The position numbers and the translations under genes were made by a program. Below, piece by piece: positions 27,568 through 28,442 of a stretch of DNA of 64,000 nucleotides. The DNA comes from Escherichia coli (GTDB taxonomy: Bacteria; Pseudomonadota; Gammaproteobacteria; Enterobacterales; Enterobacteriaceae). The first letter of the stretch is position 1; each line of letters opens with the position of its first letter. The notes under the pieces are model-generated. The model did not search any database, was not told where the DNA came from, and saw only the letters and a program-made list of their open reading frames with translations. Location: the NCBI RefSeq assembly GCF_044324875.1, contig NZ_CP172186.1. One strand, written 5' to 3'.

Positions 27568-27898
27568 TGGATTTGCCCCTATATTTCCAGATACCTGTTA
27601 TCACTTAACCCATTACTGGCTTGCTGCCGTAGATATTCCCGTGGCGAGCGATAACCCAGTGCACTATGCGGATGCCATTCGTTATAATGCTCGAACGCCT
27701 CTGCAAGGTTCTTTGCTGCCGTTAACCCGTCTGGTTTGGGCATGACACTGATGTAGTCACGCTTTATCGTTTTCACGAAGCTCTCTGCTATGCCGTTACT
27801 CTCCGGACTCCGCACCGCCGTGCTCTTCGGTTCAAGCCCCAACATCCGGGCAAACTGCCGTGTTTCATTAGCCCGGTAGCATGAACCATTATCCGTCA
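27568..27898 (-). mobile_element. IS2 right-end fragment (3' part of orfB plus terminal repeat)
   Basis: Terminal sequence tggatttgcccctatatttccag.. matches remembered IS2 end; encodes ..[36 protein letters not shown].. Confidence 0.75.
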
Positions 27899-28193
27899 TC
27901 CATATCACCACGTCAAAGGGTGACAGCAGGCTCATAAGACGCCCCAGCGTCGCCATCGTGCGTTCACAGAATACGTGCGCAACAACCGTCTTCCGGAGCC
28001 TGTCATACGCGTAAAACAGCCAGCGCTGGCGCGATTTAGCCCCGACATAGCCCCACTGTTCGTCCATTTCCGCGCAGACGATGACGTCACTGCCCGGCTG
28101 TATGCGCGAGGTTACCGACTGCGGCCTGAGTTTTTTAAGTGACGTAAAATCGTGTTGAGGCCAACGCCCATAATGCGGGCAGTTGCCCGGCAT
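27579..28193 (-). pseudogene. chimeric ORF: IS1 InsB N-terminal ~100 aa fused in frame to IS2 OrfB C-terminal ~100 aa
   Basis: Protein switches from IS1 InsB (..[13 protein letters not shown]) to IS2 OrfB ([18 protein letters not shown]..) at a shared 8-bp stretch tgacggat. Confidence 0.8.
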
Positions 28194-28442
28194 CCAACGC
28201 CATTCATGGCCATATCAATGATTTTCTGGTGCGTACCGGGTTGAGAAGCGGTGTAAGTGAACTGCAGTTGCCATGTTTTACGGCAGTGAGAGCAGAGATA
28301 GCGCTGATGTCCGGCGGTGCTTTTGCCGTTACGCACCACCCCGTCAGTAGCTGAACAGGAGGGACAGCTGATAGAAACAGAAGCCACTGGAGCACCTCAA
28401 AAACACCATCATACACTAAATCAGTAAGTTGGCAGCATCACC
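27891..28442 (-). mobile_element. IS1, 3'-truncated (about 550 of 768 bp)
   Basis: IRL ggtgatgctgccaacttactgat.. (reverse complement) ends at 28442; insA intact, insB cut after codon ~100. Confidence 0.9.
28112..28387 (-). CDS. insA: IS1 InsA
   Basis: [43 protein letters not shown]... recognised as IS1 InsA. Confidence 0.95.

Follow-up and report, generated by a model that had tools for sequence, protein, structure and literature searches.

A probable microhomology-mediated deletion joined IS1 to IS2 upstream of an EEP gene in an Escherichia coli plasmid lineage

How does the left part of one insertion sequence come to be joined, in a single reading frame, to the right part of another? The question is raised by a locus on contig NZ_CP172186.1 of Escherichia coli assembly GCF_044324875.1, which we analysed within a stretch of 64,000 nucleotides, referred to here as the window. 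A sequence-only reading of this DNA had described an IS1-IS2 chimera formed at an 8-bp microhomology and had attributed it to deletion between the two elements rather than to transposition. Our analysis upholds that attribution: given internal breakpoints, a joint lying in the shared octamer, and collinear flanks, the chimera is very probably an IS1-IS2 fusion produced by deletion between two direct copies of TGACGGAT.

Both parents were identified by BLAST against the K-12 reference elements. IS1A 1-552 aligns to window positions 28442-27891 on the minus strand with 99.3% identity, opening at 28442 with the left-end sequence GGTGATGCTGCCAACTTACTGAT, in agreement with the earlier description of IS1 running from its left inverted repeat through insA and about 100 codons of insB (101 according to the open reading frames). 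IS2A 997-1331 matches 27902-27568, also on the minus strand, with 95.5% identity, and the check that could have overturned the assignment of the downstream half to IS2 instead confirmed it. The IS2 fragment also matches the profiles Pfam rve_3 and NCBIfam “IS2 transposase TnpB” (positions 189-301 of 301). At 95.5% identity to K-12 IS2A, the IS2 half represents an IS2 isoform. The chimera had been thought to end at 27579, which is the last base of the stop codon of the hybrid frame; the IS2 terminal repeat reaches 27568. No further IS1 or IS2 sequence was found elsewhere in the 64-kb window.

In a base-by-base three-way comparison, the window matches IS1 perfectly through the end of TGACGGAT and follows IS2 from TGACGGAT on, the octamer alone (27898-27891, minus strand) being common to the two parents in the chimera. 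The switch had been placed exactly at a shared octamer, and the alignment proposed as its refutation put the breakpoint inside TGACGGAT. The octamer lies at 545-552 in IS1A and at 1001-1008 in IS2A, both internal positions, and is present once in the chimera and once in each parent, on the same strand in all three. Extended imperfectly, the homology covers 11 of 12 bases, TGG[A/C]TGACGGAT. IS1A and IS2A have in common 17 maximal direct matches of at least 8 bp (one 10-mer, five 9-mers, and eleven 8-mers) among roughly 1.0 million possible breakpoint pairs, from which a random junction is calculated to fall within such a match with a frequency of about 1.6e-4. Chance is thus an unlikely source of the octamer at the joint, and the microhomology genuinely reflects how the joint was formed.

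Table 1. Coordinates of the IS1-IS2 relic and of associated features in the window
Feature	Position	Strand	Content or basis
Tn3-family transposon carrying the chimera	22000..28772	.	32-bp terminal inverted repeats, resolvase gene, disrupted tnpA, EEP passenger
EEP, 287-aa signal-peptide-bearing endonuclease/exonuclease/phosphatase protein (secreted)	26703..27566	-	Pfam Exo_endo_phos
IS2 fragment (IS2A 1009-1331)	27568..27890	-	Last 103 codons of orfB/insD and right inverted repeat
Hybrid open frame, 204 codons	27579..28193	-	InsB 1-101 plus OrfB 199-301 (101 + 103 codons)
Promoter-like site TTGACG-17-GATAAT (predicted)	27888..27916	-	TTGACG is IS1 527-532; GAT from the octamer, AAT from IS2; directed toward EEP
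Recombination joint, octamer TGACGGAT	27891..27898	-	Three-way comparison; (M/L)-T-D, phase equal in both parents
IS1 fragment (IS1A 1-552)	27891..28442	-	Left inverted repeat, insA promoter region, intact insA, insB' codons 1-101
insA, intact, 91 aa	28112..28387	-	Open reading frame list; full-length matches to Pfam Zn_ribbon_InsA and HTH_Tnp_IS1
A6C -1 programmed frameshift motif, intact, TTAAAAAAC	28130..28136	-	Located in the sequence
9-bp IS1 target-site duplication, left copy, TAATTCGCG	28443..28451	-	Same 9-mer on both sides of the complete IS1 in p12100-PER

What remains at 27568-28442 is, with high probability, an 875-bp immobile relic in which the leftmost 552 bp of IS1 meet the rightmost 323-331 bp of IS2, the two being co-oriented and joined through a single TGACGGAT. 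Such a relic is unable to transpose because its ends are one from IS1 and one from IS2. An intact IS1 has two inverted repeats of ~23 bp in ~768 bp and a target-site duplication of 8-9 bp on either side, and here the right end (553-768) and the right copy of the duplication are missing; of the components of InsAB', insA and the A6C motif are intact, and the IS1 sequence of insB' ends after codon 101 of 167. Of an intact IS2, with its 1331 bp, both inverted repeats, and orfA/orfB with a frameshift, only IS2A 1001-1331 remains.

The arrangement that preceded the relic is preserved elsewhere. Plasmid p12100-PER of Providencia rettgeri holds the same Tn3-family transposon intact; there a complete IS1 occupies the identical site, with TAATTCGCG on both sides of it, and 166 bp of native DNA then lead to the EEP start codon. 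The native upstream region, in this complete-IS1 state, was found in 25 of 31 EEP-carrying PLSDB plasmids, and IS1 likewise lies just upstream of EEP in an IncK2/Z plasmid of E. coli. Both flanks of the chimera in the window are collinear with the ancestral arrangement: on the left stands TAATTCGCG, the right copy of which has gone with the deletion, and to the right of the IS2 end stands AATGAAATTAAC, which matches the native sequence exactly, starting 1 nt before the ATG. With the outer flanks collinear in this way, the most economical explanation is a simple deletion, within one molecule, between the direct 8-bp repeats.

The proposed history has three steps. IS1 entered the passenger region of the Tn3-family transposon 166 bp upstream of EEP, as is shown by the survival of this state in many plasmids. 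IS2 would then have inserted in the same orientation as IS1, 1 nt before the EEP ATG, with an expected 5-bp target duplication of AATGA; this pentamer follows the right end of the element, and the left flank would have been lost in the deletion. The left joint of the IS2-bearing intermediate is predicted to read AAGGTGTAAAAATGA followed by the IS2 left end TAGACTGGCCCC. Finally, as the end state suggests, a 1394-bp deletion between the direct octamers would have removed IS1 553-768 (216 bp), a 170-bp spacer, and IS2 1-1008, reducing 2269 bp to 875 bp. We infer the order of events and the 1394-bp size by parsimony. No intermediate carrying intact IS2 at the start of EEP turned up in 72,556 plasmids, searched with the native upstream region plus EEP, or in 5,426 complete E. 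coli genomes, searched with the joint between the IS2 end and EEP; these searches returned the deleted form only.

A homology of 8-12 bp is far below the requirement of RecA, and RecA-independent short-homology recombination is therefore the best assignment, although we infer this independence from repeat length. The route may have been replication slippage (copy-choice) or microhomology-guided end joining, and the sequence cannot tell which. RecA-independent deletions between short direct repeats are well known in E. coli, from lacI deletion spectra and from work on slippage or copy-choice and on microhomology-mediated end joining. The chimera resembles deletions of the lacI type in keeping one copy of a 5-10-bp direct repeat, lacking the DNA between the two copies, and involving no element end; it differs from them in that the repeats lie in two unrelated mobile elements and the repeat coincides with a conserved catalytic motif, so that the deletion yields an in-frame domain fusion. 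The octamer is neither the longest nor the nearest repeat that could have been used, since the 10-mer and the five 9-mers were also available and some of these lie 314-672 bp apart in the proposed intermediate. Repeat length and distance do not by themselves predict the joint; an element of chance or of selection is needed as well.

The window is a sibling of pLH50-c-A (NZ_CP100501.1), an IncK2/Z plasmid from Swiss poultry; the two are essentially identical, the window having two extra IS insertions and a shufflon rearrangement. This finished, circular plasmid carries the identical joint and gave the only single-piece match when the collections of plasmids and of E. coli genomes were searched. 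The hybrid open frame, used as a protein query, recovered the chimera in six draft E. coli assemblies (GCA_900482235.1, GCA_958431365.1, GCA_025261605.1, GCA_027921485.1, GCA_025436635.1, and GCA_027921495.1). Each of the six has EEP and the resolvase gene downstream of the hybrid, as well as tnpA on contigs that are long enough; the three longer contigs have tra genes upstream of the chimera. Five copies of the 875 bp, from the window, pLH50-c-A, and three of the drafts, were compared base by base and show 5 SNPs in total. SNPs between sibling copies are concentrated in the IS parts, those of the IS1 part lying at IS1 positions 127, 262, 475, and 486, where gene conversion or polishing error may be the source. 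A scan for a 25-mer spanning the joint gave no exact match in species-representative genomes or JGI metagenomes, and the joint is not widespread beyond the E. coli assemblies recovered with the protein query. We found no literature describing the IS1-IS2 joint, and in a paper on IncK2 plasmids (PMC12987596) both the chimera and the EEP gene go unmentioned. Because the same chimera always occurs in the same context, it marks one lineage. The search of other plasmids that had been recommended for a clonal marker confined the identical joint to a single transposon and plasmid lineage, and the 875-bp joint can serve as a sequence-specific marker of that transposon and of the IncK2/Z plasmid lineage in poultry-associated E. 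coli.

The octamer is read in the same phase by both parents, as aTG-ACG-GAT (M-T-D) in insB and as cTG-ACG-GAT (L-T-D) in IS2 orfB, and any exchange inside it is therefore in frame. The junction had been said to keep the reading frame and to permit a 204-aa hybrid protein. The open frame exists as described; a free 204-aa protein, however, does not follow from it. The IS1 transposase is InsAB', made by a -1 frameshift at A6C, and insB has no translation start of its own, so that the plausible product is instead a 269-aa InsA-B'-OrfB' fusion expressed through A6C. InsA by itself is the IS1 repressor and an inhibitor of transposition, and with insA and its promoter intact, the relic probably still makes this repressor.

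The octamer also coincides with a likely active-site residue. InsB contains a sole D-x24-E pair, formed by D101 (WMTDGWP) and E126 (QRIERHN). The spacing from the second Asp to the Glu of IS1 is reportedly 24 residues (Ohta et al. 2002), and from this spacing and the uniqueness of the pair we take D101 to be the second catalytic Asp of IS1. The catalytic triad of IS2 OrfAB is D240/D306/E342 (PMC3219604), equivalent to D132/D198/E234 of InsD, with D198 specified by the GAT of the octamer. By this alignment, the octamer encodes the second catalytic Asp of both transposases, that of IS1 being a predicted assignment drawn partly from the reported spacing, and the hybrid is predicted to swap the enzyme halves exactly at strand beta-4. 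On paper, the hybrid has a triad of D44 (putative), D101, and E137. Compared with InsAB' and IS2 OrfAB, proteins of the RNase-H-like/retroviral integrase superfamily, it keeps the IS1 N-terminal DNA-binding and first-Asp region, the shared second Asp, and the IS2 Glu at the 35-residue spacing of the IS3 family (PMC3219604), a D...D-35-E arrangement. Unlike them, it consists of two truncated halves, has lost the native D-24-E spacing of IS1, and lacks a matching pair of ends, and it is not a working member of either family.

Profile and structure searches were made with the hybrid sequence. Its IS1 half matches Pfam DDE_Tnp_IS1 at positions 1-73 of 131, and in-register alignments spanning the joint were obtained with two profiles, Pfam rve (aa 49-130) and NCBIfam IS481 (aa 51-186), and with lentiviral integrase core sequences (aa 68-160). 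AlphaFold models of the 204-aa hybrid were of low confidence, with mean pLDDT values of 35.6 from the single sequence and 46.7 from a block alignment of 43 trimmed IS1/IS3-family segments (pTM 0.21 and 0.40). Searched against the PDB with Foldseek, these low-confidence models returned integrase cores only, over ~160 aligned columns, with TM scores of 0.32-0.43 and an rmsd of at least 7 Å. A Gly-to-Cys change at IS1 position 475 is private to the window copy.

The joint also brings together a predicted promoter directed toward EEP. Its putative -35 and -10 hexamers come from different parents at functional spacing, and at 10 of 12 consensus positions it is the best sigma-70-like site predicted in the region; it is absent from IS1A and IS2A, and sites of equal quality number three in the whole window on both strands. 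A junction-spanning promoter-like site would arise at 1 of the 17 possible joints at repeats of at least 8 bp; one scoring 10/12 would arise at 1 of 247 possible joints at repeats of at least 6 bp and at 0.08% of random junctions. A single nucleotide separates the IS2 end from the EEP ATG (27566), and the native promoter-like sites of EEP, located in the 166-bp spacer of p12100-PER, have gone with its Shine-Dalgarno sequence AAGGTG through the IS2 insertion and the deletion. EEP is intact in all chimera carriers examined and has a lineage-specific G75R change. Between the joint and the ATG, no terminator-like site was found on the minus strand; an Rfam scan of 26000-30000 on both strands returned nothing, and a search for internal repeats returned nothing relevant beyond copies of the transposon inverted repeats.

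Hybrid promoters derived from insertion sequences are known from IS2 upstream of ampC and from the blaOXA-58 promoter built from IS1006 and an ISAba3-like element (PMC9330008). The predicted site at the joint is like these in combining -35 and -10 hexamers from different sources, joined by rearrangement and facing a neighboring gene. In the known cases, an outward-facing -35 hexamer in an IS end is paired with a -10 hexamer that belongs either to the target or to another IS end, whereas in the chimera both predicted hexamers are internal transposase coding sequence brought together by deletion.

Could the joint have arisen otherwise than by deletion between the two octamers? IS1 and IS2 are multicopy elements, and draft assemblies do mis-join such elements. 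Two Shigella sonnei hybrids (P0005 and P0007), considered as precedents, come from short-read drafts, have two different left IS1-IS2 joints at one locus with duplicated IS1 segments, and were set aside as probable mis-assemblies. The clustering of sibling-copy SNPs in the IS parts could likewise be read as a sign of an assembly or sequencing artefact uniting two repeated elements. Against this, the identical joint is present in the finished circular plasmid and in six independent assemblies with unique flanks on both sides, and no assembler would be misled by an overlap as short as 8 bp. An artefact is therefore ruled out for all practical purposes. A transposase-mediated origin would involve an IS1 adjacent deletion, an IS2 surrogate internal end, or the insertion of one element in the other. 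Both elements are active in E. coli and known to cause deletions, and 5 nt upstream of the joint stands GGTGAT, a sequence similar to the tip of the IS1 inverted repeat. IS1 adjacent deletions, however, start at an IS1 end, and the joints of IS2 circles and figure-eights involve the IS2 inverted repeats; joints made by transposase contain an element end, and here IS1 is broken at 552 and IS2 at 1001-1008. IS1 adjacent deletion, IS2 circle or figure-eight formation, and simple insertion were each rejected on these internal breakpoints. Since neither breakpoint is at an IS end, transposase chemistry is effectively excluded; moreover, no target duplication surrounds the joint, and a position exactly in a shared repeat is not required by transposition. 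We judge such an origin to be highly improbable.

Deletion between the octamers being preferred, its product might still have been kept for what it encodes or expresses. It could be supposed that the 269-aa fusion forms a composite DDE domain with an RNase-H-like fold and works either as a chimeric transposase or, in dominant-negative fashion, as a regulator of IS1 or IS2. The position of the joint on the codon for the second catalytic Asp of both enzymes, the retention of D...D-35-E, and the in-register alignment of rve, IS481, and retroviral integrase core sequences are in keeping with this idea, as are the secondary-structure order in the low-confidence models, which fits the fold, and the return of integrase cores only by Foldseek. 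We nevertheless think it very unlikely: models with such pLDDT and TM values say nothing about folding, the left end of IS1 and the right end of IS2 are not a matched pair that could serve as substrate, frameshifting in IS1 is inefficient, and the Gly-to-Cys change private to the window copy lies in the IS1 half. The recurrence of InsB-OrfB fusions reflects ascertainment and not selection, since a protein search detects fusions that are in frame only. It is conceivable, although we would not expect it, that the deletion was an adaptive repair, retained since the candidate joint promoter, ~320 bp upstream, re-activated an EEP gene that IS2 had silenced and cut off from its native promoters and Shine-Dalgarno sequence; a folded chimeric DDE protein with regulatory activity would be a secondary reading. 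A site matching at 10 of 12 positions and present in neither parent, its rarity among the alternative joints, the use of a repeat that is not the longest or nearest, the loss of the native promoter-like sites, the terminator-free stretch up to the ATG, and the integrity of EEP in every carrier examined would all fit. Yet the promoter is a bare consensus match noticed post hoc, and the IS1 insA promoter or read-through from IS2 could also express EEP. In place of the native AAGGTG, the ribosome-binding context is now a weaker AGGGG, located 9-11 nt upstream in the IS2 repeat, and a neutral scar on a successful plasmid explains the distribution equally well. If adaptive repair did occur, the surviving deletion would have built a near-consensus promoter from the coding sequences of two transposase genes, and an active joint promoter may explain the use of this particular repeat.

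Fusion of IS1 with IS2 is not peculiar to this plasmid. The search with the hybrid frame that detected further InsB-OrfB fusions, and that could detect in-frame cases only, also revealed a chromosomal relic with the structure IS1(1-417)-IS2(1039-1331)-IS1(703-768), for example at 874061-874698 of NZ_CP020509.1, in which the joint is the 6-bp repeat CGCCAG. From its structure, this relic is an IS2 that inserted in IS1 and later lost sequence through a short-homology deletion. On their chromosomes, 250 of 5,426 complete E. coli genomes (~5%) carry it in one piece, and IS1-IS2 scars of such a kind are therefore common. Like the plasmid chimera, it has a co-oriented IS1 5' part and IS2 3' part, a joint in a short repeat, internal breakpoints, an open InsB-OrfB frame, and a retained insA. 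It differs in its joint positions, in its origin from IS2 inside IS1, and in being chromosomal and widespread; its joint is not at a catalytic residue, whereas that of the plasmid chimera is at the second Asp. Short-homology deletions and IS relics are textbook matters, and with another IS1-IS2 fusion in ~5% of complete E. coli genomes the conceptual gain from the present case is small: the chimera is an ordinary scar, a fresh instance of a well-known kind of event.

The two relics are also alike in how they have been annotated. RefSeq labels the CGCCAG relic with partial “integrase core domain” pseudogenes, and in the sister plasmid the two halves of the chimera are likewise annotated as partial pseudogenes. 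A pair of entries reading “IS1 family transposase, partial” and then “integrase core domain protein, partial” can together represent one fused frame.

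The passenger gene 3′ of the IS1-IS2 chimera, encoding a protein of the endonuclease/exonuclease/phosphatase (EEP) family, lies within a Tn3-family transposon that carries a third, internal copy of its terminal inverted repeat (see the table). The EEP stop codon directly precedes this internal copy, which forms a direct repeat with the copy at 28741-28772. The EEP module thus has one direct repeat copy on each side, an arrangement that suggests separate capture of the passenger, as a unit of its own bounded by repeats. Plasmids of E. coli (mostly from poultry), Providencia rettgeri, and Vibrio tapetis carry copies with more than 96% identity. 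No close match to the EEP protein was found among solved structures, and its similarity to exonuclease III and to extracellular nucleases is weak only.

Coordinates of features in the window
Feature	Position	Strand
Tn3-family transposon 32-bp terminal inverted repeat	22000-22031	+
First ORF of the 22600-23902 insertion (overlaps the second)	22654-22980	
Second ORF of the 22600-23902 insertion	22977-23867	
Third, internal 32-bp inverted repeat copy, 2 mismatches	26655-26686	-
EEP-family protein gene, 287 aa, signal peptide	26703-27566	-
SNPs against pLH50-c-A in the IS1 part of the chimera	27957, 27968, 28181	
Tn3-family transposon 32-bp terminal inverted repeat	28741-28772	-

Across 22.9 kb compared with the sister plasmid pLH50-c-A, which carries the identical chimera joint, three of the four SNPs fall within the 552-bp IS1 part of the chimera. 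The window agrees at IS1 positions 262 and 486 with the complete IS1 at the same site in the P. rettgeri plasmid p12100-PER, while pLH50-c-A has the alleles of IS1A, the K-12 reference; sibling copies of the chimera show further SNPs at IS1 position 127 and IS2 position 1076. These SNPs stem either from gene conversion involving other copies of IS1 or from errors in short-read polishing.

Two Shigella sonnei drafts (GCA_001257195.1 and GCA_001261295.1) have differing left IS1-IS2 joints at one chromosomal locus, where IS1 1-577 or 1-650 is followed by the IS2 3′ end and then by IS1 508-768, so that IS1 segments are duplicated. These joints are probably assembly artefacts; the resulting hybrids are present in protein databases under the name “IS2 transposase InsD.”

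Comparison of the window with pLH50-c-A also revealed an insertion of about 1.3 kb (22600-23902) that pLH50-c-A lacks. This insertion, an IS629/IS1203-like member of the IS3 family, has the ends TGAACCGCCCCGGGAATCCTG…CAGGAAACCCGGGGCGGTTCA, contains two ORFs that overlap, and lies in a tnpA that had been disrupted beforehand. A 2.6-kb insertion at 7192-9830, likewise missing from pLH50-c-A, is an IS21-family element whose two encoded proteins, of 548 and 332 aa, are IstA-like and IstB-like, respectively. The region 46822-48610 is rearranged relative to pLH50-c-A in what looks like an ordinary IncI-type shufflon inversion, the inverted 492-bp piece (47381-47871) adjoining pilV and a site-specific integrase gene.
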